A program made the position numbers and the translations under genes. A stretch of DNA of 64,000 bases from assembly GCA_016699425.1 (NCBI GenBank), contig CP064975.1, positions 130,979 to 194,978 on the forward strand. Direction: 5' to 3'. The notes under the pieces were generated by a model, which was given only the letters and a program-made list of their open reading frames with translations, did not search any database and was not told where the DNA came from. Origin of the DNA: Candidatus Moraniibacteriota bacterium (GTDB lineage Bacteria; Patescibacteriota; Minisyncoccia; Moranbacterales; UBA1568). The number at the start of each line of letters is the position of its first letter. Positions within the stretch are counted from its first letter, which is position 1. This document shows, piece after piece, positions 7,880 through 56,364 of the stretch.

Positions 7880-8046
7880 AGCGTATGCTTAGGGATTACT
7901 CCCTCAGTATATCATCACCCGAGCCAGCTGGGTTGATGCGGTGGTTGGGTGCTTCCTGGTCAGGAAGCAAGGACACTTCCGAGAGGCATGCTCGCCGGCA
8001 GGATCCCAGTCTCCTGTCCGATGACGTGTAGGTCATATTGTATCCC

Positions 8047-8071
8047 TGGAAGCCTGTCTGCCGGTAAACAG
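8047..8071. repeat. GC-rich hairpin repeat (family member a: CCTGTCTGCCGGTAAACAGGCAGG) just downstream of the tRNA-Arg(TCT) 3' end
   Basis: Eight-bp stem with one G-U pair. Homologous hairpins occur at 8203-8224, 34621-34641, 41598-41615, 52186-52206 and 56206-56228. Confidence 0.6.
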
Positions 8072-8092
8072 GCAGGGAACATTCATATTCTG

Positions 8093-8164
8093 TGCCCCGA
8101 GAGAGAATCGAACTCCCATCAAGACCTTAGAAGAGTCCTGCTTTATCCATTAAGCTATCGGGGC
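8093..8164 (-). tRNA. tRNA-Arg (anticodon TCT)
   Basis: Hand-folded cloverleaf with acceptor GCCCCGA/TCGGGGC, D-arm GCTT-AATGGATA-AAGC, anticodon stem GGACT/GGTCT with two G-U pairs, loop CTTCTAA and T-arm GGGAG-TTCGATT-CTCTC. CCA is not encoded. Confidence 0.8.
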
Positions 8165-8165
8165 G

Positions 8166-8274
8166 TATTCTTTTGTAAAAAATTTTTAGAAGACTCCTGC
8201 TCCCTGCCTGCCGGTAGGCAGGTATCCATTGAGCTACAGGGACGGTTCGAGCGGGGCAATCAAATATCCACAGG
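8166..8274 (-). pseudogene. Degenerate partial copy of the tRNA-Arg(TCT) 5' half (acceptor/D-arm/anticodon arm) interrupted by a family hairpin
   Basis: Minus-strand reading GTCCCTGTAGCTCAATGGATA-[CCTGCCTACCGGCAGGCAGG]-GAGCAGGAGTCTTCTAA parallels tRNA-Arg GCCCCGATAGCTTAATGGATAAAGCAGGACTCTTCTAA. There is no T-arm or 3' acceptor strand. Confidence 0.5.
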
Positions 8275-8346
8275 GGTGGCTAGAGGGAATCGGACCCTCG
8301 TTCACGGTACCACAAACCGTTGTCTTACCATTAGACGATAGCCACC
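8275..8346 (-). tRNA. tRNA-His (anticodon GTG) with encoded G-1
   Basis: G-1 pairs with C73, acceptor GTGGCTA/TAGCCAC, D-arm GTCT-AATGGTA-AGAC, anticodon stem ACGGT/ACCGT, loop TTGTGGT, T-arm GAGGG-TCCGATT-CCCTC. Confidence 0.8.
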
Positions 8347-19152: not shown

Positions 19153-19177
19153 TATATTTTCCGTAGCCCCAAGGGGA
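19153..19177. repeat. attR-like partial copy of the tRNA-Glu 3' end (left island boundary)
   Basis: 15/15 identity with 25274-25288, then 6/10 matches over the next 10 nt. Confidence 0.55.
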
Positions 19178-19275
19178 GTTTCGCCTTGCTGTCTGCTGAC
19201 AGCTTCGTTGTCCTGGGCAGCGCTGAATGCTCACTCGCATTCATCGACACTCGCCATGCCTTCACGGCAGGGCTC

Positions 19276-19296
19276 GCACCTGCCCGTTCGATTCCC
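19276..19296. repeat. Inverted partial copy of the tRNA-Glu T-arm/acceptor (CCCGTTCGATTCCCCTTGG)
   Basis: 16-nt exact match to the reverse complement of 25281-25296. This is an additional tRNA-derived scar at the island edge. Confidence 0.5.
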
Positions 19297-19511
19297 CTTG
19301 GTAAAAATACCAACAAAAAACACCGCTCCTCGCGGAGGGTGCTTTTATTGGTCACGTAGACCAAATAAGAAAGTCGTGGAATCAGATTATACCAGAGCTA
19401 AAGGAGTGGCAAACCCTTCAGAAGGAGGAAGTAGAATGCTCGGTATTGGCTTAATTACGCTTCCCCACTGCGGTCGCTAATCTACCCATAGGGAATAGAA
19501 ACGCCTAGAAA

Positions 19512-20222
19512 TCATCGACTTCTTAGTATCTCCTGTTTTTCAATCTTACTGGCTTCGGCGTTTTCTTCTAGTTCAGCGAGTATAATCTTCTTTTCTCGGT
19601 CAATTTCTTTCTTGTCTAGTTTTGGTCCTCTAGTCTTCAAGAAGACCGTCATTATTTTATTGCCTAGGGGTTTATCATACTTGATCTGTAAACGAACACG
19701 CGCCAGTAAAGTCACTATTTTATCCTGTAAGTGAATCAGAAAAGGTCGTAGCTGCTCATCAAGTGATCCAGCCAGCGATCCAACATTACTCCTGTAATCT
19801 TCTAGAGTTAGGTTCTTTTGAAGTAATGCTACACGAATCTCATCATACCCCTTTGATATATTCTCCACGTCATCATTTAACCTTCTTAAATCGTAGTGAT
19901 AAGCATAGAGTTCGTTCTTTAACGATAGATCGTACAGCATTTCGTAGTGAGATTTATCGATGGACAAGTAGCGCAGATGTTCAAAAGTAACATTATTTAT
20001 CTTGATAGCCGCTACAAACCGGCCTATTGTAAACAGATTATCTTGAATTACAGCCCCGTCTTCGAGGAGCTGCATCTCAAGACTTACTAAGGAGTTATAG
20101 TGTCTGACTTGTCTCTCATAAAGCTTTGTGAAGAACTCTGCTAGGCGCAAAAAAAGAAAAGCAAAAAAAGCTCCAGAAAATGCACTTATCATACTGAAAG
20201 CTATGTTGGATTCCATAGTCAA
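19512..20222 (-). CDS. Island cassette gene 4: hypothetical protein with N-terminal TM helix
   Basis: 236 aa, AT-rich codon usage, one N-terminal TM followed by a predicted coiled-coil/soluble domain. Its start overlaps the stop of the upstream gene by 4 nt. Confidence 0.55.
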   Translation of the reverse strand: MTMESNIAFSMISAFSGAFFAFLFLRLAEFFTKLYERQVRHYNSLVSLEMQLLEDGAVIQDNLFTIGRFVAAIKINNVTFEHLRYLSIDKSHYEMLYDLSLKNELYAYHYDLRRLNDDVENISKGYDEIRVALLQKNLTLEDYRSNVGSLAGSLDEQLRPFLIHLQDKIVTLLARVRLQIKYDKPLGNKIMTVFLKTRGPKLDKKEIDREKKIILAELEENAEASKIEKQEILRSR

Positions 20223-20497
20223 TCCCGTGTCTCTTTACAAATATATAGCCCCAGTTCTTTATCTTGGATCTTACACTTATAACCACATTCAAAAGTAGCA
20301 TTAGGTAAAGAGCGCTTAGAAAATTCGAAGCCCGCCAGACATTCTTCGAAAGACTCGTAAGAGTCTATGGCTTTGATAGCTTCTTCTGCTAACTCGCCAT
20401 TCGGATATACGAACAAAGACCATCTATCCTTCTGCAGGAAAGAAATTAAGAACCCTACGCCAATGACGATAAAGGCTACAACAAAAAACTTTTGCAT
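20219..20497 (-). CDS. Island cassette gene 3: small Cys-containing membrane-anchored protein (92 aa)
   Basis: N-terminal TM (FFVVAFIVIGVGFLISF) followed by a small domain with four Cys. Translationally coupled to its neighbours. Confidence 0.5.
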   Translation of the reverse strand: MQKFFVVAFIVIGVGFLISFLQKDRWSLFVYPNGELAEEAIKAIDSYESFEECLAGFEFSKRSLPNATFECGYKCKIQDKELGLYICKETRD

Positions 20498-20509
20498 AGA
20501 AGAAGGCTC

Positions 20510-20692
20510 TTAGCAGGCGGTAGTATAAGTAGATACCTCACCCTCCTTAATCTCAAGGGCTATTCGTCTTAACTCGGTAATCTCTTCTGCCTCTTCTCTT
20601 GTTACCTCTTCGGAAACTGCAGTATCTCTAAGGCTATCTTCCTTAGTTACCTCATCAAGTTTAGTGAATATGATACTAAAGTCTCTACTCAT
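20510..20692 (-). CDS. Island cassette gene 2: small acidic protein (60 aa)
   Basis: Glu-rich 60-aa ORF whose start overlaps the protease gene stop (ATGA). Confidence 0.4.
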   Translation of the reverse strand: MSRDFSIIFTKLDEVTKEDSLRDTAVSEEVTREEAEEITELRRIALEIKEGEVSTYTTAC

Positions 20693-21843
20693 ACGATTTT
20701 CTTTTTTGTTTGTGATTCTAGTTGCTGACGTAAATTACCCAGATCAATTTCTTTCTTACACGAAGGACACTTAATTTTATTGTCTGCTGGAAACTCTATA
20801 GTTCCAGCCTCCAGAGGCCTTTTCTGATCGAAGTCCACTTGAATTTTTGAAGTGTGATTACAGTTCTGGCACTTAGCTTCGACAACTGCTCCGTTTGCTT
20901 GAGCCGGATTAACGTTTGTATTTTGAGCTAAGAACCGATAAATCTGAGAATCTACTGTTTCGATTACCTTGTATATACTCGTTGAACTAAAGGTCATTTC
21001 TAGCAGGGTATAGTACCTTAGAATAGCTTCTTCTAATTCGGTCCCGGTGTAATCATTTATCTTCAGCTTCATTGAAGCTAAGTCTTGTATCTTGAGAGAC
21101 TTAGCGTGAGTTTTCCATCTAGAATGGTCGCTCAGACTTTTAGCAATCTCCTCAGCTCTTTTTTCCTTCTCTTCAGGTGTTACGGGTCGTCCGTCAGAAG
21201 AATGTGTCGTCCAGTCTTTGAACTTATATTTAACTAACCACTCCTTCACTAAAACTCGAGCAAACTCCATAGCATTCTGAGCGTTTTGAAGTTCTCCTGG
21301 AGATATATTCTGGAGAATAGGAACGTAGGCACGATTCAATATACCTGTTTCCAAGACTTCTTTCTTAATCTTTTCCATCCCTTCTAATAAAGCATCTGCA
21401 GAGAATTGCTTATTCTGGGCAAGCATTTGAGCATCAATTGGCCCAAGGCTGGATAGCGATCCCATTAATATTTCGTCTCCAGAAAGAGCGATGATGGTTC
21501 CGGCGCTTTTTGCGTAGCCAGGGATAATAACGGACACCTCTTCATACTTCCCTCGCAATAATCGGACAATATCTTCTGCCACCTCGCCAGAACCACCGGG
21601 AGTTTCTAAAATAAGATCAAGCTTTTTACCTTTTAGATTTGAAAGCTGATCACTTACTGGTAATAGATCAGCATAGCCAATAGCTATAAGGTTGGTTTGC
21701 TTGTTAAGATCGGCAGCATACACTAAAACATCCCTATTCCCTCTAAGGCTAGATATTTTTTGCAATTGCTTCTTCCTTTCCAGAGAAAGAGCCTCTAGGT
21801 TGGAAGCAATATTCATATTCAGATATTCGCTATAGTAGCCCAT
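20689..21843 (-). CDS. Island cassette gene 1: ClpP/S49-fold serine peptidase (SDH/prohead-protease-like) fused to a C-terminal CxxC...CxxC zinc ribbon
   Basis: LDLILETPGGSGEVAEDIVRLL...IIPGYAKSAGTIIALSGDEILMG matches the ClpP/SppA-type nucleophile context. The C-terminus has CQNC...CPSC. Confidence 0.6.
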   Translation of the reverse strand: MGYYSEYLNMNIASNLEALSLERKKQLQKISSLRGNRDVLVYAADLNKQTNLIAIGYADLLPVSDQLSNLKGKKLDLILETPGGSGEVAEDIVRLLRGKYEEVSVIIPGYAKSAGTIIALSGDEILMGSLSSLGPIDAQMLAQNKQFSADALLEGMEKIKKEVLETGILNRAYVPILQNISPGELQNAQNAMEFARVLVKEWLVKYKFKDWTTHSSDGRPVTPEEKEKRAEEIAKSLSDHSRWKTHAKSLKIQDLASMKLKINDYTGTELEEAILRYYTLLEMTFSSTSIYKVIETVDSQIYRFLAQNTNVNPAQANGAVVEAKCQNCNHTSKIQVDFDQKRPLEAGTIEFPADNKIKCPSCKKEIDLGNLRQQLESQTKKKIV

Positions 21844-22239
21844 TCTGATTTCTTTAAGTCAAGTTGATTTTAGCACTTTTTAAGCATCTAAAAAATAGAT
21901 TAAATTATCATTGAAATCATAGGCTTTGTAAAGTCATTTTTCAAAAACTGAAAAAATTATGGGGGACGTATTATACCGTATATCAGAGATCTGTTTTTAA
22001 TCCACCCCCCTCACCCCTGTAGCTCCTGTGGAATTTGAATGATCCAAAAAACCAGTTTTTTAATTAAAGAAATGGGGAGGATGTATTAGCTAAGATCTAA
22101 TCGCTAGGCCCATAACAAAGAAGTTACCTAGCAAAAGGATAAAGGCCCTGATATAAAGCTTCTTTAACAATTACTACTCTAACCTTGAACGCAGAAGCAA
22201 GCGAACACATAAACGCTTGAAGCGAACTCTGTTTCGCTT

Positions 22240-22386
22240 CTAGTTATTGTCCTTAGACACTCTTTTTCTTTCTTCTAACCAGTGGCATACAAGCCAAATA
22301 CCACCAATGATAAGCGTCAGTAAGCCTACGACGCGCAAGAGGTTGTCAAACCATACCGAGAAACTAACGGTCCCTAGTTCTTCCAT
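22240..22386 (-). CDS. Candidate 48-aa hydrophobic peptide (MEELGTVSFSVWFDNLLRVVGLLTLIIGGIWLVCHWLEERKRVSKDNN) in the island non-coding spacer
   Basis: ORF found by hand (below the 60-aa cut-off of the ORF track) with a single TM helix. No clear SD. Confidence 0.2.
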   Translation of the reverse strand: MEELGTVSFSVWFDNLLRVVGLLTLIIGGIWLVCHWLEERKRVSKDNN

Positions 22387-22622
22387 AAACAGTACTTAAT
22401 GCTTAGGCTCTCCACATCGGACGCAAAACAAAAGGACGCCCGACTGGTTAGCCACGTTCGGTGTCCTTGCGGAAGCCTACTTATGACGTCGAGCGCCCCT
22501 TTCAGGCCACAAATAGGCCAAAAAAGACGCAAAGACGTCTAATTTCCGCAAAAACACAACGTAGCTAACCACCTTGATATTATCTTTTAAAAAGTCTTAA
22601 ATCAAGGTTAGGGGGATTTCTT

Positions 22623-23264
22623 ATGAGAATGAGTATGATACTGGACACCAGGAAAGCTTTTAATGCTGGCCGTTTTCAAAGCCAAGAGGAGTTCCTTGCC
22701 TTTCTGCTCGGCGATACACTGTACGAGCACAGAAATATTTATTTTCAATGCGATAGCCAGATCTATTATTCTATTGAGGAGAGCCTACGTGATAAAGAAA
22801 GGAAGAGATGTTTCCGCGTGGAAGTCTCTAGGCTAGAGGGCTATACCGGATATTTTTTTCTGACAAATATCAGCAGAACAGCCCTAGAGAAGAATGATTC
22901 CGAATGGCCGAAAGCAAAGATTAATCGAAGCCTGAAAAACGAGGCTCTAATGTTTGATACAGAAAAGTCATTGATCGCGGGGAAGACTGCCGTTAGTAAA
23001 ATCAAACCTAATACTAAGGAGAATGGGCTTTGCGTCTTTTTGTTTAAGCAGAAGACAGACCACTTTGTTGATTGGTCTCTCTTTATGGAGCACTGCACTG
23101 GGAGTGAGTACAATATGACAAAAGATGACAAAGCAAAAAATAACAGTGACAAGAAGATGATTAAAGATACTATCGATCGAATAAACAAAAGGGTTCAGAA
23201 GGACTTTGATGTAACGGATGAACTGTTTCAGTTCGAGAGAAATTGTATCAAAAGAAACTTTTAG
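22623..23264 (+). CDS. Island hypothetical protein (213 aa)
   Basis: AT-rich ORF upstream of and co-directional with the recombinase. No motif recognised. Confidence 0.5.
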   Translation: MRMSMILDTRKAFNAGRFQSQEEFLAFLLGDTLYEHRNIYFQCDSQIYYSIEESLRDKERKRCFRVEVSRLEGYTGYFFLTNISRTALEKNDSEWPKAKINRSLKNEALMFDTEKSLIAGKTAVSKIKPNTKENGLCVFLFKQKTDHFVDWSLFMEHCTGSEYNMTKDDKAKNNSDKKMIKDTIDRINKRVQKDFDVTDELFQFERNCIKRNF

Positions 23265-23343
23265 ATAAGCCAAAAATCTTTTGTCGGAAGTGAGTCACGG
23301 GGGTAAGGCGTAGAGTTGGGGCATAAAACCTCAACTCTTTTTT

Positions 23344-23583
23344 ATGCAGGACAATCACTTTTCTACTTCTGACTTTTACCTAGCCGCCTATTGTGTCGCC
23401 CAAGGGATGAAGATAGCAGGTATCAGCCGGAGCGGATCCGGTAAGGCAACTTTTCTTTTGGAGGGTGCGCCAAAAGGAAGAGAACTAATGAAAGAGTTCT
23501 TATTTAGTGACCCGAATGTAGAGGCCAAGCGTTTTGTTTCGGCAATCAAGGAACTGAAGCAATTACTTTATTCGGTAGCGTAG
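23344..23583 (+). CDS. Island small protein (79 aa), possible recombinase accessory or directionality factor
   Basis: Small basic protein immediately upstream of the serine recombinase. The functional call rests on position only. Confidence 0.35.
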   Translation: MQDNHFSTSDFYLAAYCVAQGMKIAGISRSGSGKATFLLEGAPKGRELMKEFLFSDPNVEAKRFVSAIKELKQLLYSVA

Positions 23584-23587
23584 CGTG

Positions 23588-23764
23588 ATGATCTCCATTG
23601 AAAGATGCCGACAACTAGTACCTGATCTCAAAAATCTCTCTGATGAAGAGGTTATTGAGATTAGAGAGAATCTCTATGAGGCAGGCTTGCTTGCTTTAGA
23701 GGTTTGGGCCGAAGAGAATAGTGGTTCCAAAAATCCCCCTTGGGTATTGCCCGCCAGGCCTTAA
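23588..23764 (+). CDS. Island small protein (58 aa; MISIERCRQLVPDLKNLSDEEVIEIRENLYEAGLLALEVW...)
   Basis: Hand-found ORF between the 79-aa gene and the recombinase. It is acidic, helical and tightly packed against its neighbours. Confidence 0.3.
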   Translation: MISIERCRQLVPDLKNLSDEEVIEIRENLYEAGLLALEVWAEENSGSKNPPWVLPARP

Positions 23765-23788
23765 GGAGTACCATAGTAGTAAACAAAA

Positions 23789-25312
23789 ATGAGTATGAAA
23801 AGTTCTGATACAAAAACTGGGATTATATACTGCCGAGTGTCTTCACTGGAGCAAGTGGAGGGCACAAGTCTTGGAACGCAGGAGAAGATCTGTCGCGAAT
23901 ACGCCAACAAAGAAGAGATCAAAATCCTTAAGGTATTTGTAGAAAAAGGAGAATCTGCAAAAACAGCTAATAGAACAGAGTTTAATAAAGCCATCGCTTT
24001 TTGTGCAGACAAGAAGAATCAAACAACTTTCTTCATTGTTCACAAAGTAGATAGGTTTGCGCGTAACCAGGACGATCACGCCATTGTAAGGAGTAGCTTA
24101 AAACGTCTAGGTGTTGAGCTAAGATCAGCGACCGAGCCAATCGATGAGACTCCTATGGGGCGTTTTATGGAAGGGGTCTTGTCGGCCACTGCAGAGTTTG
24201 ATAATAGTGTCCGTTCAATTCGTACCACACAAGGTATGAAAGAACGTCTCAAAAATGGCATCTGGGTATGGCAAGCCCCACTTGGGTACCACAGACCCTA
24301 CAGGGGTTCAAATCTCTTTCCTGAACCAAATATAGCCCCTCTCATTAAGCTAGGGTTTGAGGAATACTCAAAAGGAACCTACACCTACGAAAAGCTTGCC
24401 TTGTTTCTTTCTGAAAGGGGTCTTAGATCTAGAGCCGGAAAAGCTATCACTCCTCAGTTAATGGAGAAAATCATAAAGAACCCTCTCTATTGTGGAGTCA
24501 TCAAAACCTGGGGTGAGTCCGAGGGAGCTTTCGAGCCCATCATATCGAAGGAGTTATTTTTCAAGTGCCAGCCGGAAGGCATAAGATCAGCACAACCGAA
24601 TCCGCGCTCACTCAATAACCCTCTTTTTCCGTTAAGGCGTTTCATACAGTGTAGCAACTGCGAAACACCTCTTACAGGTAGTACGTCGAAAGGCAGGGAC
24701 GGGAAAGGGTATCCATACTATCATCATCACCATAAGGGCTGTGAGGAGGCTAAATCTGTACCCAAAGAAGCTTTCGAGCAGCTCTTCATCCAATTTTTAG
24801 ATGATATTTCTCCGGATGCAAAGTATGAGAAGCTTTTCAAGGCTATTGTTCTGGATATTTGGAAGAATAACTATAAGAGAATTGATGAGGAAAATGCCAA
24901 AATAAATAGAGCTGTTACTGCTTTAGAGAAGGATAGACAAAAAATCTTTGATCTCCATCGTTCTGGAAAGTATTCCGATGAAGACTTTGATGAGCAAAGG
25001 AAACTAATCTCTGTAAAGATAAATCAGAAACGACTCCTACTAAGGGAGAAATGGGATGAAGAGTTTGAAATGGAAAAAGTTTTAGACTACTGCTTTATCT
25101 ATGTTCGAAACAGTGCTGAGGCGTGGAAGAAGGCCCGGTATGAACGAAGAATAAGACTACAGAAGCTAGTCTTCGCCGGAAGGATAGATTATGACGGAAA
25201 GAAACTTGGAACCACCGAATTACGGCAGATCTATCGGATAAATCAGGCATACCAGTCTGATAAATCCTCTTTAGTAGCCCCAAGGGGAATCGAACCCCTC
25301 TTACCAGGATGA
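23789..25312 (+). CDS. Large serine recombinase (integrase)
   Basis: N-terminal resolvase catalytic domain (IIYCRVSSLEQ with the catalytic Ser, KVDRFARN), a recombinase domain and a C-terminal Zn-ribbon region (CSNCETPL...HHHHKGC). The last 38 nt are tRNA-Glu sequence. Confidence 0.85.
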   Translation: MSMKSSDTKTGIIYCRVSSLEQVEGTSLGTQEKICREYANKEEIKILKVFVEKGESAKTANRTEFNKAIAFCADKKNQTTFFIVHKVDRFARNQDDHAIVRSSLKRLGVELRSATEPIDETPMGRFMEGVLSATAEFDNSVRSIRTTQGMKERLKNGIWVWQAPLGYHRPYRGSNLFPEPNIAPLIKLGFEEYSKGTYTYEKLALFLSERGLRSRAGKAITPQLMEKIIKNPLYCGVIKTWGESEGAFEPIISKELFFKCQPEGIRSAQPNPRSLNNPLFPLRRFIQCSNCETPLTGSTSKGRDGKGYPYYHHHHKGCEEAKSVPKEAFEQLFIQFLDDISPDAKYEKLFKAIVLDIWKNNYKRIDEENAKINRAVTALEKDRQKIFDLHRSGKYSDEDFDEQRKLISVKINQKRLLLREKWDEEFEMEKVLDYCFIYVRNSAEAWKKARYERRIRLQKLVFAGRIDYDGKKLGTTELRQIYRINQAYQSDKSSLVAPRGIEPLLPG

Positions 25313-25346
25313 AAACCTGGCGTCCTAACCGATAGACGATGGGGCC
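25275..25346 (-). tRNA. tRNA-Glu (anticodon TTC); its 3' end is overlapped by the serine recombinase ORF
   Basis: Acceptor GGCCCCA/TGGGGCT, D-arm GTCT-ATCGGTTA-GGAC, anticodon stem CCAGG/CCTGG, loop TTTTCAT, T-arm AGGGG-TTCGATT-CCCCT. Confidence 0.8.
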
Positions 25347-34602: not shown

Positions 34603-34648
34603 GTGTCCCCGCGTGGAGTCCCTGTCTGCCGACAGGCAGGGAACCACG
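34603..34648 (-). pseudogene. Duplicate of the last ~25 nt of tRNA-Arg(CCG) with a family hairpin inserted in its T-loop
   Basis: GTGTCCCCGCGTGGAGTC at 34603-34620 is an exact copy of 34663-34680. It is followed by CCTGTCTGCCGACAGGCAGG and then AACCACG. Confidence 0.6.
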
Positions 34649-34664
34649 ATACGATACTGCTTGG

Positions 34665-34736
34665 TGTCCCCGCGTGGAGTCGAACCACGGTCTCTTCCTT
34701 CGGAGGGAAGTGTCCTATCCGTTGAACTACGGGGAC
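34665..34736 (-). tRNA. tRNA-Arg (anticodon CCG)
   Basis: Acceptor GTCCCCG/CGGGGAC, anticodon stem CTTCC/GGAAG, loop CTCCGAA, T-arm with TTCGACT loop. Confidence 0.8.
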
Positions 34737-34809
34737 GGAAAAATTGAAATATATCTACTTGGTCTGACTGGAATCCCAGCCCGTAGAAGCTACGCTTCAA
34801 GCGTTGCTG

Positions 34810-34890
34810 GCGGGGAACCACGATTTCATCCTTCGGAGGTATGTGCCTCCCGCCCGAACGACGGACATCGTTCAGTCGGGCGGGTATCCA
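34810..34890 (-). pseudogene. Degenerate pseudo-copy of the tRNA-Arg(CCG) T-arm/anticodon region with a long imperfect hairpin
   Basis: GAACCACGATTTCATCCTTCGGAGG parallels tRNA GAACCACGGTCTCTTCCTTCGGAGGG. It continues into the palindrome CCCGCCCGA...TCGGGCGGG. Confidence 0.45.
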
Positions 34891-35069
34891 TTATACGACG
34901 AGCGCGAAGTACGACAGAGTATTTTCTTAAACAGAAACACAAAAACCCTATCACACATCGTGACCGAAAGGCAAACTGATTGTAACACAGAGGGATGTTT
35001 TTTCGATTGACAGCTCTGGACAGATGGGAGATAGTTGTCACGTGACATATTTCAAGGAAGGAGAAAATC

Positions 35070-37227: not shown

Positions 37228-37332
37228 AGAGTATGTGAATATTTCTTTTTATTCACTATACCATGATTTGTCCTGTCCGCGATCCCGTCAGAGAGCGGGG
37301 AACCTTCGGTACCTTGCCCTATCCAATCAAAG

Positions 37333-37487: not shown

Positions 37488-37606
37488 ATGTAGATAAACA
37501 GGGAACAAGACTGCTGCCTTCCCTGCCCGCCTTCGGAGGGAACCACTCGGCCACTCCTCCGCTTTCATAAGATACCCTTCAATCCCACCCGGCGGACCAC
37601 GCTTCC
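37488..37606 (-). pseudogene. Two degenerate partial copies of the tRNA-Ser(TGA) 5' region separated by a hairpin
   Basis: GACTGCTGCCTT-[CCCTGCCCGCCTTCGGAGGG]-AACCACTCGGCCACTCCTCCGC parallels the tRNA segment GACTGCTGCCTTCAACCGCTCGGCCACGCTTCCGC. A second copy (GGCGGACCACGCTTCC) lies at about 37590-37606. Confidence 0.5.
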
Positions 37607-41488: not shown

Positions 41489-41679
41489 GTACGCCCGCTA
41501 ATACAGCTTCTAGGTTGTAGTGGGTAGCTTGTAGGCGGTAGCTGGTTGCGTGTGGGTTGTAAGCGGGTAGGGATGAGAAAATACAGAAAAGAGCAGGTTC
41601 CCGAGATGGGCTTGCCTGCCGGTAGGCATGAATTTTGCTTTATGTAAAGCAAAAATACTGATTCTAGTGGCAGCGGTTC

Positions 41680-41979: not shown

Positions 41980-42268
41980 ACTGCATTGTTGACTAGATAG
42001 CACATGGGTGCTATTTTTTCTTTTCATTAACAACAGGAGATTTTCATGGACAGGGAATGGGACTGGTGGGTGAAGTCATTTATCTTGCTTCCGATCGAAC
42101 AAGGCCGGAAAGACTTGGAAACGCGACCCAATCGCGGTGAGGCGGCACGAGTTCAGGTTGGGGACATCATCTGTTTCAACCGGTCTGTCCGTCGACGAGT
42201 CATCGCAATCCGGCACTACCAATCGTTCAAAACGATGCTTGTGGTTGAAAAGTCTGAACGTTTCTATC

Positions 42269-43473
42269 GTTACCGTTACCTTTTCAGTTGATAGTAGGGC
42301 GCTTTTTTTCAAAAAGTTTTACTGCTTCTACGCCTAGTTTTACTAATGTCTCAGGCCAGCGAGCCTGTTTTTTGATACTCAAAGAGAGTGAAGGGTAACC
42401 GTTCAAATATTTAAATTTAGCTTCACAATCTGTAAAAAGGCTTGGTTCTCCTCCGTATCATCCACGCATTCAACCAACACTGAGCCGAAGCAAAACTCTG
42501 AAAACCCTTGATCGTCTTCAGCCTCCCATTGAGATGGGAATTGTAGAGTTCAATGAGATTGGTGTTGTTGGGACAGCCTGGCAGCAGCAAGTAATTGAAG
42601 AGTTCCTCCTGCCGGTACGCTATCTCACTTACGATGTTTTTGAGCAGACGTTTCTCTCTCTTGATGCTCGCGGCAAAAGATCGAATGGCGTTCGTCACAT
42701 CCTCTCGTTCTCCAAACACGCTCTCCTTGAGAGCGTAAAAGAAGGGCCGGTATCGCTCTTCACTCCGCACCCGTAAAGCCACCCGGATATTCTCCAGGTA
42801 GTGGTTGTGGCAGAGCTGCAGCCGAGCCGACGGAAAAACCTTCAGGAGAGCCTTTTTCAGGCCAGAGCGGTCATCGGCGACCACGATCTGAAGATCATAG
42901 CCAAGTTGCTTCACTTGATGGAAGAAACGTGAGAAGGACACCTCATCTTCCGCTGTATACAAAGCCCCGAAGGGAATATCGTGGGTCAAGTAATCAATGC
43001 CGTAGAGAAAAGGAATCTTTCTCGCAAAGCCTTTGACCGCCACATACTTCCCATCCATGACAAGGATGCCCGAGAAGCGTCTCGGGTCACAGAGGGTTTG
43101 CGTCAGAGCGTCATTGGAAGGAAGTTGTGCTAATTCTCTTGTAACTCTCACGAAGGCTTGTTTTCCCGAGAGACCATATTCATCTCCTAATTTACGAAAC
43201 GGTACCCCATCAATATGCTCGATCCACAGCAGTCTCGGATCATGCCCGAAGTAACGAGAAAAAGAATGTTCACAAGCACGACACAGGTAGTGATGGCTGT
43301 AGCCTTGGGAGCCATTCTTCACCGTCTCACGACTGCTGCAGCGGGGACAGTGACGTGACCATTTTTTTTGACATGCTGAATGAAATTTAAGGCTTAAAGT
43401 CAACTTTACAGCCGGTTTGAGGCTCTAGTCTAACAAGAACAACACTTTCCATCAACTGAAAAGGTAACGGTAT
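42269..43473. mobile_element. Complete ~1.2-kb IS element with 22-bp terminal inverted repeats (TACCGTTACCTTTTCAGTTGAT) and a ~10-bp target-site duplication (CGTTTCTATC)
   Basis: The left repeat at 42271-42292 is the reverse complement of 43451-43472. The direct repeat CGTTTCTATC lies at 42259-42268 and 43474-43483. The element holds a single transposase ORF. Confidence 0.75.
42423..43403 (-). CDS. IS transposase with N-terminal zinc ribbon plus DDE domain (IS1595/ISNCY-like; family call tentative)
   Basis: CPRCSSRETVKNG...CRAC zinc ribbon. Candidate catalytic acidic residues in ILVMDGKYV, IVVADDRSG and HNHYLEN. Confidence 0.7.
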   Translation of the reverse strand: MTLSLKFHSACQKKWSRHCPRCSSRETVKNGSQGYSHHYLCRACEHSFSRYFGHDPRLLWIEHIDGVPFRKLGDEYGLSGKQAFVRVTRELAQLPSNDALTQTLCDPRRFSGILVMDGKYVAVKGFARKIPFLYGIDYLTHDIPFGALYTAEDEVSFSRFFHQVKQLGYDLQIVVADDRSGLKKALLKVFPSARLQLCHNHYLENIRVALRVRSEERYRPFFYALKESVFGEREDVTNAIRSFAASIKREKRLLKNIVSEIAYRQEELFNYLLLPGCPNNTNLIELYNSHLNGRLKTIKGFQSFASAQCWLNAWMIRRRTKPFYRL

Positions 43474-43861
43474 CGTTTCTATCCGGGCGCCACGAGAGAT
43501 GTCATTCTCGGAGCCCTCAGAGAAATGTATCGGACTGATCCCGAGCAGGGAGTGTTCTGCTTCGAACTCGAACGAATTAGTTAAGGGGGCATCATGTACC
43601 AATCGTGATGCCCTTTGAAATTTCGATTCTTGACAGAAATCCCAGAGGAGAGCCAAAAACTCCTGCCCGAAATGCGAAGTTCGTTTCAACTGAAAAATGA
43701 GTAAAGGTTTTTTCTTCAGGAGCAGGTTTCCCTAGAGTAGATTCGTATAACGTGGCAGGCGGGGCTTGCGCACTTCTAGATTTTGGCTTATTCTCGGGGC
43801 AAGGAGGCTGAGGTCTCCAAAAAGAATGAAACAATAAGCTAGAAAGAGAGGTGGAAAAATT

Positions 43862-46227: not shown

Positions 46228-48267
46228 ATGCTGAACTCAAATCTCGAGAAGAACGTCGAAAAGGGGTACCAATCACTCGGACGGTCAATACTCCTCGTGG
46301 GGAGGCAGAAGGTTCGGTTTTCTCTGGCGCTCCTTAGCATCATGTTCGTGGGCGGGGCGCTCGCGATGCTCATCTGGAACGTCTCAAGTACCTTCAACAA
46401 TGACTCAATCCAAGGCTCGCTCGCTTTGTTGCCGGGGGTGGAGTTGAATACCACGCAGGCAGCCGCGAATTCGACCTTGCTTTTCAATCCGGCCAGTGTG
46501 TCTGTCGCTGGTGATCAGCAGTTCTCCCTGGATGCGCGGATCAATCCTGGTACCAACGCAGTGAGTGCGGTCGAGCTGCATGTCACCTATGATCAAACAA
46601 AATTCCGACTGGATAGCATCACGGCTTCATCCCCGTTCACTCTCGAGCTGGCTGCGGCGTCAATCAACAATACAAATGGTACGGCCTCTATCGCGTTGGC
46701 GGTTCCTTTGACAAGCCCGTCGGTCACGACGACATCGACGATCGCGACGTTCTCGTTTCATTCCCTGGCGTCCGTGACAGGTTCTTCGATTGCGTTTACC
46801 GCAGCGTCGATCGCTTCTGCTGATGGCGAATCTGGCAATGCGATCATTACTCGTACACCAGCGACCGTTACGGTCGATGGCACAGCGCCCACCATCACCA
46901 CCATCACCTCGTCCCAAGCCAACGGAACATACACGACTGGTGCCGTCATCCCGATCAATCTCACCTTCTCCGAAGCAGCGACCTCGACTGGCAATGTCAC
47001 GGTCACACTGGAAACTGGTACGACCGATCGCACCTGCACGTTCACTGTGTCGAATTCGACGACGGGGAGCTGTAACTACACGGTCCAAGCCGGAGATACC
47101 ACAACTGATCTCAACGTGAATACGGTCTCTGGTGTCATCCGGGACCAGGCTGGGAATGCGATGACCAACTTCGTTCCGACGACGAACCTGGCTGCTAACA
47201 AGGCACTGGTGATTGATACGACTGCTCCGACCAATCAGCAAACTGTCTTTTCGACGAGTGTTTCGGTAGCGGGCGGAGCAAGTGTCACGATCGTTTCGTC
47301 AGGAGACTCCACGAACAATGTCTGGTTTGCCCCATCGGGTACCACAAACTTCGTAGCGAGCGCGACTATGACCAAAGCCGCGAATGGCTCATCGACCACC
47401 ATCCTCGCCCCAGCTACAGGTGGAAGCTACAAGCTGTTTGTGATCGATGCGGCCGGCAATGTGTCTACAGCCTCAACAGCAACCTTGACGGTTGATAGCG
47501 TGCCGCCCACCATCACCACCATCACCTCGTCCCAAGCCAACGGAACATACACGACTGGTGCCGTCATCCCGATCAATCTCACCTTCTCCGAAGCAGCGAC
47601 CTCGACTGGCAATGTCACGGTCACACTGGAAACTGGTACGACCGATCGCACCTGCACGTTCACCGTATCGAATTCGACGACGGGGAGCTGTAACTACACG
47701 GTCCAAGCCGGAGATACCACAACTGATCTCAACGTGAATACGGTCTCTGGTGTCATCCGGGACCAGGCTGGGAATGCGATGACCAACTTCGTTCCGACGA
47801 CGAACCTGGCTGCTAACAAGGCACTGGTGATTGATACGACAACGCCGGTGATCTCTGTGGTATCGGCGATCCCGAGCATTACCCGGGACTCTACACCGTA
47901 CTATGTGTTCAATGCGACAAAGCCCGGAACGATCACGTATGGGGGCGGCTGTTCATCGAGTACGACTGCCGCCGTATCGGGCAGCAACACCGTCACTTTC
48001 AACACACTGAGTCCAGGTACGTACGCGAGCTGCACACTCTTCATCACGGATGCATCGAGCAATTCGAGTAACACGCTCAGTATCGCTTCGTTCGTTGTGA
48101 CATACGCGAGTGATCTCAATTTGGACCGGACGGTAAATGTTATCGACTTCGGTGTTCTGAAGACAAACTACGGCACCACCAATGCTGCGGGCGATATCAA
48201 TAGCGATGGCCAGGTCAATGTGCTGGACTTCGGCGTCCTGCATGGTCAGTATGGGAGCAGTGTGTAA
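46228..48267 (+). CDS. Scaffoldin-like surface protein: TM anchor, cohesin-like module, two identical 112-aa Ig-like repeat modules, further beta-rich modules and a C-terminal dockerin
   Basis: 679 aa. The cohesin-like module is residues ~85-215. An exact protein repeat is encoded by a 336-bp DNA tandem repeat. The C-terminal dockerin reads DLNLDRTVNVIDFGVLKTNYG / DINSDGQVNVLDFGVLHGQYG, two DxNxDxxVNxxD Ca-loop repeats. Confidence 0.7.
   Translation: MLNSNLEKNVEKGYQSLGRSILLVGRQKVRFSLALLSIMFVGGALAMLIWNVSSTFNNDSIQGSLALLPGVELNTTQAAANSTLLFNPASVSVAGDQQFSLDARINPGTNAVSAVELHVTYDQTKFRLDSITASSPFTLELAAASINNTNGTASIALAVPLTSPSVTTTSTIATFSFHSLASVTGSSIAFTAASIASADGESGNAIITRTPATVTVDGTAPTITTITSSQANGTYTTGAVIPINLTFSEAATSTGNVTVTLETGTTDRTCTFTVSNSTTGSCNYTVQAGDTTTDLNVNTVSGVIRDQAGNAMTNFVPTTNLAANKALVIDTTAPTNQQTVFSTSVSVAGGASVTIVSSGDSTNNVWFAPSGTTNFVASATMTKAANGSSTTILAPATGGSYKLFVIDAAGNVSTASTATLTVDSVPPTITTITSSQANGTYTTGAVIPINLTFSEAATSTGNVTVTLETGTTDRTCTFTVSNSTTGSCNYTVQAGDTTTDLNVNTVSGVIRDQAGNAMTNFVPTTNLAANKALVIDTTTPVISVVSAIPSITRDSTPYYVFNATKPGTITYGGGCSSSTTAAVSGSNTVTFNTLSPGTYASCTLFITDASSNSSNTLSIASFVVTYASDLNLDRTVNVIDFGVLKTNYGTTNAAGDINSDGQVNVLDFGVLHGQYGSSV
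46887..47840 (+). repeat. Tandem direct repeat inside the scaffoldin gene: two 336-bp copies (46887-47222 and 47505-47840), >99% identical, period 618 bp
   Basis: The copies differ at only about two positions. Each encodes APTITTITSSQANGTYTTGAVIPINLTF...NLAANKALVIDTT. Confidence 0.85.
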
Positions 48268-52081: not shown

Positions 52082-52185
52082 AGTCAGATGGATGCCGGGT
52101 TGACTCTCGGGGAGGAGACCGGTACACTGGGCAGGCACTAAGCGTTTATTTAGAGCGAGCGGGGCATCGTATACCGGTAGTACCT

Positions 52186-52206
52186 GCCTACCGGCAGGCA
52201 GGCGTC
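52186..52206. repeat. GC-rich hairpin repeat (family member e: CCTGCCTACCGGCAGGCAGG, the exact reverse complement of the copy at 8203-8222), 28 nt upstream of tRNA-Pro
   Basis: Exact reverse complement of the hairpin between tRNA-Arg(TCT) and tRNA-His. Confidence 0.6.
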
Positions 52207-52233
52207 TGCTCCTTGTCCTGTCACACAAAATAT

Positions 52234-52304
52234 CGGAGCGTAGTATAGTGGTAGTACGCCTGGTTTGGGACCAGGTGGTCCGAGTCCGATTCTCGGCGCT
52301 CCGA
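52234..52304 (+). tRNA. tRNA-Pro (anticodon TGG)
   Basis: Acceptor CGGAGCG/CGCTCCG, D-arm GTAT-AGTGGTA-GTAC, anticodon stem CCTGG/CCAGG, loop TTTGGGA, T-arm CCGAG-TCCGATT-CTCGG. It is flanked by the 10-bp inverted repeats TGTCACACAA (52218-52227) and TTGTGTGACA (52311-52320). Confidence 0.8.
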
Positions 52305-52419
52305 CTACAAAGTTGTGTGACGGGGTGAAGGAGCAGATAGTCTGGGTTCCCCGCCTGCAACGCTGTTGCGTAGCAATTGCGGGCAGGAATTCCCAGTGCC
52401 CCGACAGAATTTCTTCTCT

Positions 52420-56194: not shown

Positions 56195-56290
56195 TCGCGG
56201 GTTCCCTGCCCGCCGGCAGGCGGGGATTCCCGTCTCTCGCTCACGGTATGGCAGGCGGGGATTCCGGTATCCTCTCAAGATACGATAAAC
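56195..56290 (+). repeat. Hairpin (CCCTGCCCGCCGGCAGGCGGGG) plus two tandem degenerate copies of the tRNA-Gly 3' end (T-loop to CA)
   Basis: GGCAGGCGGGGATTCCCGTCTCTCGCTCA and GGCAGGCGGGGATTCCGGTATCCTCTCA both parallel the tRNA 3' segment GATTCCGGTATCCCGCTCA. Confidence 0.55.
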
Positions 56291-56364
56291 TCAATACAAT
56301 TAAGAGATTCCCGCTTGCCCTGCCAAAGCTTGCAGAGCGGTGGCGGGTCTCTCGCTCAGTGTAA

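Follow-up and report, generated by a model that had tools for sequence, protein, structure and literature searches.

Our analysis indicates that a 20-nucleotide (nt) palindrome found six times in a 64,000-nt stretch of Candidatus Moraniibacteriota contig CP064975.1 (the whole stretch is called the window below) belongs to a repeat that accompanies small GIY-YIG nuclease genes at tRNA genes in many phyla. We demonstrate the architecture of these nuclease cassettes, a statistical link between palindrome and nuclease, precise insertion of the palindrome, and its preference for loops. A more far-reaching reading, at a probability of roughly 35%, is a pan-bacterial pair in which an Slx1/UPF0213-type GIY-YIG nuclease of about 80 amino acids (aa), nested at tRNA genes, would recognize the 20-nt palindrome and seed it without target duplication into single-stranded loops, such as those of the tRNA D and T arms, of terminators, and of the palindrome itself. 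In the explanation that we favor, the window itself probably holds decayed cassettes without the nuclease open reading frame (ORF) at five of its ten tRNA genes, namely Arg-TCT, Arg-CCG, Ser-TGA, Pro-TGG, and Gly-TCC, together with two solo palindrome copies (at 41611 and 8053).

The window was scanned with the palindrome consensus, allowing up to three mismatches, and 100 dinucleotide-preserving shuffles served as the control. Six matches to the CCTGCCTGCCGGCAGGCAGG-like palindrome were found and none in the shuffles, which bears out the count of at least six copies in the first-pass annotation of this DNA. The canonical form, CCTGCCTGCCGGCAGGCAGG, is a perfect 20-nt palindrome (8-bp stem, CCGG loop, -8 kcal/mol), and two variants were named T (CCTGCCTGCCGGTAGGCAGG) and M (CCTGTCTGCCGACAGGCAGG). 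The six copies are as follows.

8053 to 8076, no strand: hairpin copy of the CCTGTCTGCCGACAGGCAGG type (M) with four additional loop bases, 15 nt beyond the 3' end of tRNA-Arg(TCT)
8203 to 8222, no strand: hairpin copy, exact T variant CCTGCCTGCCGGTAGGCAGG
34621 to 34640, no strand: hairpin copy, exact M variant CCTGTCTGCCGACAGGCAGG
41611 to 41630, no strand: solo hairpin copy, T variant with two mismatches, no adjoining tRNA
52183 to 52202, no strand: hairpin copy, exact T type, in the D arm of an older split tRNA
56205 to 56224, no strand: hairpin copy, between TTC and GATT of a tRNA-Gly-like T loop

The sites reported earlier were real, with the positions near 41.6 kb and 52.1 kb off by 13 and 3 nt, respectively, and the copies at 8203 and 52183 were exact reverse complements across 22 nt, as had been noticed. 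DNA folding gave hairpins of 6–10 bp for all six copies (-4.3 to -8.6 kcal/mol). No run of T followed any of the six on either strand; intrinsic terminators were rejected on this ground, in line with the earlier opinion that these are not simple terminators. Five of the six hairpins lie 15–55 nt from a tRNA end, a proximity shared by about 3% of the window (binomial P ~1e-7), so that the placement of five copies beside tRNA genes held. The hairpins had been described as lying 20–50 nt past tRNA 3' ends; this side was correct for three copies (8053, 34621, and 56205), and the other two precede 5' ends. One of them, at 8203, is 21 nt upstream of tRNA-Arg(TCT) and 50 nt past tRNA-His, and the other, at 52183, is followed by tRNA-Pro, which begins 31 nt downstream. 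A partial tRNA copy had been claimed at every tRNA-adjacent hairpin; four of the five do lie inside a partial copy of the neighboring tRNA, the exception being the 8053 copy.

Compared loci from other genomes and contigs are labeled with L-numbers, of which L170 to L251 define the cassette class used here. In loci found through the hairpin (L053, L094, L026, and the viral L164), the hairpin sits in a dead 5' tRNA copy, within its D loop, and an ORF of about 80 codons and then an intact tRNA come after that copy. The ORF of these related loci, absent from the window, encodes a GIY-YIG domain (PF01541) with invariant residues Y5, Y15, R25, H29, and E61; its nearest relatives of solved structure are UPF0213 proteins and the structure-specific nuclease SLX1. 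Because hairpin-picked loci carry an ascertainment bias, nuclease loci were picked by protein profile alone: a profile from six GIY-YIG proteins was run against metagenome contigs with the hairpin ignored, and the best 80 of 517 confirmed relatives were used. A same-strand tRNA abutted the ORF in 63 of these 80 loci, including 50 of type A (dead 5' tRNA copy, ORF, intact tRNA) and 13 of type B (intact tRNA, ORF, dead 3' tRNA copy). The partner tRNAs were mostly those for Arg and Leu, and also included Lys, Phe, Met, Gly, Thr, Asn, Ser, Glu, and Cys. A hairpin near the ORF (within 120 nt, up to three mismatches) was detected in 56 of the 80 loci, and the exact canonical 20-mer in 32, whose proteins were 54% identical at the median. 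Hairpin density was about 3 per kb near the ORF versus 0.06 per kb elsewhere in the same loci, an excess of about 50-fold.

When the sequence upstream was aligned with the partner tRNA, the hairpin appeared as a clean insert inside the tRNA copy in approximately 43 of 56 analyzable type A loci, and many of the remaining type A loci carried related palindromes, including the CCCGCCTGC...GCGGGCAGG and CCCGCCCG...CGGGCGGG shells, both of which are present in the window. Direct reading assigned L053, L094, L026, L164, L176, L197, L232, L218, L221, L183, and L241 to type A, and L184, L230, L238, L204, L248, L177, and L250 to type B. Type B hairpins were found mainly in the T loop of the dead 3' copy, and those of 5' copies in the D arm. 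Palindromes entered the D loop, position 9, the anticodon loop, or the T loop, and when the insertions were mapped on the cloverleaf, 35 of 39 fell in unpaired positions or at loop/stem junctions versus 53% expected, a figure to be read with the recurrence of sites per tRNA type, which makes the events not independent. In the tandem arrays L183, L241, and L250, the ORF makes up nearly the whole unique insert, and in L183 both its ATG and its stop codon lie within tRNA-derived sequence. Judged by position, the hairpin of intact cassettes would belong to an untranslated region, 5' or 3', of the nuclease mRNA.

Two cassettes come from cultured organisms. In Salinimicrobium sediminis (L250, 9518–10320), tRNA-Leu(CAA) bears a type B tandem whose two nuclease genes, one decayed and the other intact, are each trailed by a hairpin-bearing T-arm copy. 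In Ekhidna lutea (L251, 9880–10330), a type A cassette occupies tRNA-Leu(TAA), and its D loop contains two decayed hairpins. The association also extends to a locus without any tRNA context: in L090 (2751–4892), an ORF for a type I restriction specificity protein (HsdS) contains hairpin and GIY-YIG domain together in-frame, the domain at aa 391–458, a canonical hairpin about 40 nt upstream, and another hairpin-like copy some 140 nt beyond that. The small GIY-YIG family comprises at least 7374 clusters at 90% identity. Its members bear generic database names such as "GIY-YIG nuclease family protein" and "putative endonuclease," and no NCBIfam model fits these small proteins. A literature search, with most subscription journals outside its reach, returned neither the palindrome (as the 20-mer or as 14–18-nt cores) in a relevant context nor an account of tRNA-linked small GIY-YIG genes together with a palindrome.

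To define the distribution of the palindrome, the pattern CCTGCCTRCCGGYAGGCAGG was searched in one genome per species (596 Gb). At least 120 genome stretches matched, against about 2 expected by chance in that volume by our own estimate, and the palindrome was also present in 48 viral-contig stretches. The matched phyla were Patescibacteria, Bacteroidota (including the cultured Winogradskyella, Olivibacter, and Flagellimonas), Omnitrophota, Planctomycetota, Nitrospirota, and Chloroflexi; further carriers were Ignavibacteria, Bdellovibrionales, and gamma- and delta-proteobacterial metagenome-assembled genomes. Among the matches listed, the perfect palindrome CCTGCCTGCCGGCAGGCAGG prevailed, and the flanks were unrelated. 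In paralogous or orthologous pairs, filled and empty sites differed by exactly the 20-mer with no target duplication (L071, L108, L099/L035, L120, L026, L094, and L053, as well as 34621 versus 34664–34689 in the window). Copies were repeatedly nested at the center of another copy, and were also found in the loops of terminators or other hairpins (L112, L120, L031, and L102) and in other repeats. Inverted repeats of 7 nt or more flanked 16% of sites versus 5% of controls, and direct repeats of 7 nt or more flanked 20% of hairpin sites versus 7% of controls. The flanks showed no target consensus apart from avoidance of T at -1 and A at +1.

The same architecture was then recognizable at the window tRNAs. 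ARAGORN and Rfam, in agreement, identified ten intact tRNA genes; those involved here, their relics, and the palindromes of related families are listed below.

8092 to 8164, minus strand: intact tRNA-Arg(TCT), partner of the 5' relic
8186 to 8243, minus strand: partial 5' copy of tRNA-Arg(TCT), positions 1–38, ending in the anticodon loop; type A architecture minus the ORF
34662 to 34736, minus strand: intact tRNA-Arg(CCG)
34603 to 34648, minus strand: partial 3' copy of tRNA-Arg(CCG), positions 48–73, T arm and acceptor 3' strand; type B architecture minus the ORF
34760 to 34905, minus strand: degenerate but almost complete copy of tRNA-Arg(CCG), lying upstream of the intact gene, with two palindromic inserts
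34849 to 34884, no strand: second-family palindrome, shell CCCGCCCG...CGGGCGGG, located in the D loop of the 34760–34905 copy
34776 to 34814, no strand: third-family palindrome, shell CCCGCC(A/T)GC...CGGGC(T/A)GG, enclosing an inner hairpin, located at GGTTC^GATTCC in the T loop of the 34760–34905 copy
37506 to 37560, minus strand: partial 5' copy of tRNA-Ser(TGA) that stops in the anticodon loop; its D loop contains a 19-nt variant of the hairpin (37522–37540)
37576 to 37606, minus strand: second tRNA-Ser 5' fragment, more degenerate
37284 to 37313, minus strand: tRNA-Ser 3' fragment, from the variable arm to GGTTC, then breaking into a GC hairpin in the T loop
52160 to 52210, plus strand: 5' part of an older tRNA, comprising acceptor, D arm, and 5' strand of the anticodon stem; the D arm contains the hairpin 52183–52202
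52234 to 52305, plus strand: intact tRNA-Pro(TGG), flanked on either side by one half of the older tRNA
52332 to 52406, plus strand: 3' part of the older tRNA, with a third-family palindrome (52350–52387) in the T loop
56195 to 56243, plus strand: tRNA-Gly-like 3' piece, T arm and acceptor 3' strand, with the hairpin 56205–56224 in the T loop
56250 to 56277, plus strand: second, truncated tRNA-Gly relic (right half of the hairpin, T loop, acceptor 3' end)
56306 to 56358, plus strand: third tRNA-Gly-like 3' relic, ending in TCTCTCGCTCA, as does the first

Same-strand partial copies of the adjoining tRNA were thus found at Arg-TCT, Arg-CCG, Ser, Pro, and Gly, with a palindrome in the D loop (8203 and 37522), the D arm (52183), or the T loop (34621 and 56205) of the copy. 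The Arg-TCT relic reads GTCCCTGTAGCTCAATGGATA[hairpin]GAGCAGGAGTCTTCTAA, and its insert lies at the 3' end of the D loop (GGATA^GAGC), which is also the insertion site in L183 and L232. The Arg-CCG 3' relic reads CGTGGTTC[hairpin]GACTCCACGCGGGGACAC and is identical to the real tRNA at 26 of 26 positions outside the hairpin, which entered between TTC and GA of the T loop; the same TTC/GA position is used in L184 (GGTTC^GAC; compare L238). The window variants are likewise those of the nuclease loci (exact T at 8203 and 52183, exact M at 34621), and the CCCGCCCG...CGGGCGGG shell recurs in the D loop of a pseudo-tRNA in L055 and is also present in L225. At the older split tRNA, the acceptor, anticodon, and T stems of the two halves still pair, and the leader (52206–52228) and trailer (52313–52336) of the nested tRNA-Pro form an imperfect inverted repeat of 23/24 nt that prolongs the anticodon stem of the older tRNA.

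Alignment to the neighboring tRNAs verified the Arg(TCT), Arg(CCG), Ser, and Gly fragments that had been listed before. The tRNA-Gly 3' ends amount to three pieces across 56195–56358 instead of the two counted earlier, and two relics had been missed, namely the Arg-CCG copy at 34760–34905 and the older tRNA split around tRNA-Pro. When the fragments were scored against all Rfam families at E<=1, no tRNA or other family was called, and ARAGORN called only the ten intact tRNAs. The possibility that the fragments are intact but unusual tRNAs, which the first-pass annotation had named as a refutation, was rejected; they are dead fragments. The upstream Arg-CCG copy remained uncalled even after both palindromes were excised, and the older tRNA around tRNA-Pro was recognized only with its inserts removed and an artificial anticodon loop supplied.

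The window sites were filed as relics, not as intact members of the class, because there is no GIY-YIG ORF and the spacers between relic and tRNA measure only 13–90 nt. Relics without an ORF also occur elsewhere, in genomes found by the hairpin alone, many of which are Patescibacteria (L022, L045, and L007). The host of the window is likewise probably Patescibacteria-like, its ValRS being 55–58% identical to sequences from Saccharibacteria and Uhrbacteria metagenome-assembled genomes.

We infer that the cassette may be a selfish, homing-type element that invades tRNA genes. Partial duplication would leave one working tRNA copy, so that the host tolerates the insertion, and conserved tRNA sequence on either side would give the homology for spread among genomes. 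The palindrome may be born perfect in very distant hosts and decay afterwards. Being perfect in distant hosts, its sequence would therefore have to be specified by something conserved, and the only conserved neighbor found is the nuclease. The simplest model would be a partnership like that of repetitive extragenic palindromic (REP) sequences and REP-associated tyrosine transposases (RAYTs), in which a small, probably dimeric, Slx1-like nuclease recognizes the 20-mer as a symmetric duplex, hairpin, or cruciform. The nuclease, directly or via its breaks, might seed copies in nearby single-stranded loops and more rarely elsewhere. A palindrome in the dead copy could be favored, as it would interrupt a direct repeat that would otherwise delete the ORF, and it might also disable a possibly harmful pseudo-tRNA by wrecking its D-loop/T-loop elbow. 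That the nuclease mobilizes the palindrome in this manner is a tentative reading of the sequence data, one we consider plausible but hold at less than even odds.

Several observations weigh against this model or against the reading of the window sites as relics. Most palindrome copies are far from any nuclease gene: at hairpin-picked loci, only about 10% of copies were in tRNA-like sequence and a GIY-YIG gene stood beside only 4 of approximately 125. Hairpin variant and nuclease clade showed no association in a small sample (permutation p=0.25), and the mapped insertion sites, as noted, are not independent events. When the ORFs of 121 hairpin loci were clustered, no recurrent protein family was found in cis, none occurring in more than 8 loci; a mobilizing protein encoded in cis at the hairpin loci was rejected for this reason. 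In the 64-kb window, tblastn and a six-frame search with the family hidden Markov model gave no match to the ~80-aa GIY-YIG ORF, so that its loss is deduced from the architecture, there being neither ORF nor remnant. No tRNA fragment was recognizable around the 8053 hairpin, and the complete tRNA-Pro nested in the anticodon loop of a dead tRNA is not explained by a simple type A or type B cassette.

Alternatively, the palindrome might be an independent, loop-seeking miniature element, moved by another enzyme and accumulating in dispensable structured DNA, for which cassettes and integrases merely supply dead tRNA copies as safe sites. The roughly 90% of copies at hairpin-picked loci that lie outside tRNA-like sequence, with no GIY-YIG gene within 8 kb, agree with such an element, as do the copies in terminator and hairpin loops and in other repeats, the excess of flanking inverted repeats (16% versus 5%), the missing co-phylogeny of hairpin variants and nuclease clades, and one contig with six copies and no nuclease gene in the parts read. 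It is nevertheless unlikely in our judgment. The hairpin within 120 nt of the ORF in 56 of 80 nuclease loci, with its roughly 50-fold local excess, speaks against it, as does its company with a GIY-YIG domain inside the HsdS gene of L090, and another enzyme conserved across the same phyla would still be required. Nor are other dead tRNA pieces struck equally. In L042 (4660–5160), a row of four different tRNA-Thr 3' halves comes after tRNA-Thr(CGT), each preceded by GGGGTAAA, and the hairpin is present only in the last of the four, in its T loop; the array looks like serial replacement at one tRNA.

The L042 array would also suit ordinary attachment-site (att) scars of lost integrase islands or prophages, with the hairpins as unrelated local repeats. 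Partial tRNA genes left by integration are common (PMC9897764, which covers only integrase- and CRISPR-derived tRNA fragments). In att scars and cassettes alike, one intact and one partial tRNA flank foreign DNA, with breaks in the anticodon or T loops. The window does contain one such element. The region 19163–25346 (~6 kb, low GC of 39–47%) carries a large serine recombinase ORF (23789–25312, plus strand) that overlaps tRNA-Glu (25274–25346, minus strand), and a 15-nt direct repeat of the tRNA-Glu 3' end is found at its far border (19163–19177 versus 25274–25288). It resembles an integrated element, bearing att-like repeats, that is distinct from the hairpin family; an att-scar arrangement was seen only here and not at the hairpin-bearing pieces. 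The first-pass annotation had suggested scars of tRNA-targeting elements such as this resident island. The general idea is supported, but the island as their source is not, given its recombinase at tRNA-Glu, its own 15-nt repeat, and no canonical hairpin. Integrase scars are 3' (rarely 5') repeats with the whole island between scar and tRNA, whereas the hairpin-bearing window pieces are 13–90 nt from the gene, are both 5' and 3', and have no adjoining integrase. In the cassettes, the "island" is a single ORF of ~240 nt (none in the window) without an integrase, and 5' duplications prevail. Moreover, the palindrome is inside the dead copy, as are four of the five tRNA-adjacent hairpins and the related palindromes of the window. 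We regard att scars as a highly improbable explanation.

That the hairpins and tRNA-like pieces have an RNA-level function in tRNA transcripts, as processing signals, terminators without a U-tract, stabilizers, or decoys, is very improbable as well. Stable hairpins do stand beside tRNAs on the transcribed strand, cassette hairpins would fall in the untranslated nuclease mRNA, and REP hairpins are known from established work to stabilize mRNA. However, the hairpins lack a U-tract and differ in where they lie relative to the tRNA and within the fragment, and the fragments are cut at variable points, decayed, and without an Rfam match at E<=1. The same 20-mer also occurs in unrelated contexts including coding sequence, and its asymmetric variants occur in both strand orientations. 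Hardly any credence can be given to the tRNA-derived family resembling short interspersed nuclear elements (SINEs) or miniature inverted-repeat transposable elements (MITEs) that was proposed earlier on account of the repeated tRNA-like pieces with a common hairpin. Each window fragment resembles its own neighboring tRNA and not the other fragments, so that there is no common master, and the shared part is the 20-mer only. There are no terminal inverted repeats, filled/empty pairs show no target duplication, and the element, found across phyla, is only 20 nt long.

The proposed nuclease–palindrome pair is of known kinds, namely homing nuclease genes and REP-type palindromes with a nuclease; its own features are the GIY-YIG partner, the tRNA residence with duplication, and one sequence across phyla. 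RAYT transposases are thought to seed REP copies nearby and elsewhere. The likeness to REP/REPIN and RAYT (TnpA_REP, IS200/IS605-type Y1) includes a short dispersed extragenic palindrome, a small nuclease gene with adjoining copies while most copies are solo, no target duplication, and an apparent importance of single-stranded or hairpin DNA. In contrast, the partner here is a GIY-YIG (UPF0213/Slx1-like) and not an HUH/Y1 enzyme; no recurrent Y1 (IS200/IS605-like) RAYT gene flanked by palindromes was found near the 121 hairpin loci, and the linked gene is PF01541. The palindrome is a single perfect 20-mer with no GTAG foot, REP doublet, or conserved flank; it is identical across phyla, whereas REPs are lineage-specific, and its nuclease partner is encoded at tRNA genes, where it is accompanied by duplication of the tRNA.

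Free-standing GIY-YIG homing genes (T4 Seg, including SegB in a tRNA cluster, and I-TevI) resemble the cassettes in that the nuclease ORF is almost the whole insert and is sited in or beside highly conserved genes, where flanking homology can carry it into naive alleles. The tandem arrays and degenerate copies of the cassettes are consistent with a homing-type life cycle. The cassette proteins differ in being ~80-aa catalytic domains without the DNA-binding domains of I-TevI or Seg, their hosts are cellular chromosomes of many phyla, a constant palindrome is present, and the target is rescued by partial duplication, not by an intron. Fungal mitochondrial mobile GC clusters are short GC-rich palindromes that insert into loops and genes, become nested, and have no known mobilizing enzyme. 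They differ in their unrelated sequence, their organellar setting, and the lack of a known link to GIY-YIG genes at tRNAs.

If the model is correct, the unit (~250–320 bp) would rank with the smallest known autonomous selfish DNA elements, as a GIY-YIG counterpart of REP/RAYT. It appears able to cross phylum boundaries, possibly because its landing site, the tRNA gene, is universal; a repeat identical across phyla is unusual among bacterial repeats. The link among tRNA, duplication, and palindrome gives a large, generically named GIY-YIG family a concrete and testable biology, and accounts for pseudo-tRNA fragments that confuse tRNA annotation, especially in the small genomes of Patescibacteria. 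A minimal pair of nuclease and DNA site would be a candidate for cleavage that is specific to structure or sequence and for a new way of inserting short sequences, and Salinimicrobium sediminis and Ekhidna lutea are cultured carriers in which experiments could be done.

Further observations were made on palindrome copies outside the window. Other cross-genome repeats host the hairpin at a fixed site (L099 1270–1320, L035 7377–7410, L147 977, L148 332 and 4512, L071 940, and L077 789); these hosts, CCCTCTCCTTTGGAGAGGG^GTTAGGGGTGAGG and TCATTGCGAGGAGCG^AAGCGACG...GCAATC, are shared between distant genomes. The paralogues of L108 (1504–1540 versus 121–160) differ not only by the 20-mer but also by another small GC hairpin, CCCGCTGAAGGGCGGGACAAGT, which one of them carries and the other lacks; precise insertion seems not to be confined to a single family of tiny GC hairpins. 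Solo copies often lie within short degenerate tandem repeats (6–14-nt units) that extend to both sides (L081, L091, L072, L131, L125, L145, and L067).

Viral contigs provided three tRNA loci of additional interest. In L153 (2240–2340), a full-length, initiator-like tRNA-Met carries the hairpin in its variable region and, judging from its sequence, would resemble a tRNA with a long variable arm. The same tRNA-Met in L124 (8570–8660) is truncated 3' of the hairpin, with the T arm deleted. In L164 (830–1100), a tRNA-Lys copy downstream of the type A cassette is interrupted after the anticodon stem by a group-I-intron-like sequence followed by an HNH-like ORF, which looks like several selfish elements stacked on one tRNA.

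Three other repeats were noted in the window. An inverted copy of the tRNA-Glu T arm (19286–19301) lies beside a GGCAGG...CCTGCC hairpin in the serine-recombinase island. Two 300-nt copies (46856–47155 and 47474–47773; 96% identical, 618 nt apart) lie inside a 679-aa dockerin-domain ORF (46228–48267) and represent an internal repeat of a surface-protein-like gene. The solo hairpin at 41611–41630 is 640 nt from an insertion sequence-like element (42268–43475) with 25-nt terminal inverted repeats (96% complementary) and a Mutator-family transposase ORF (42423–43403, minus strand).

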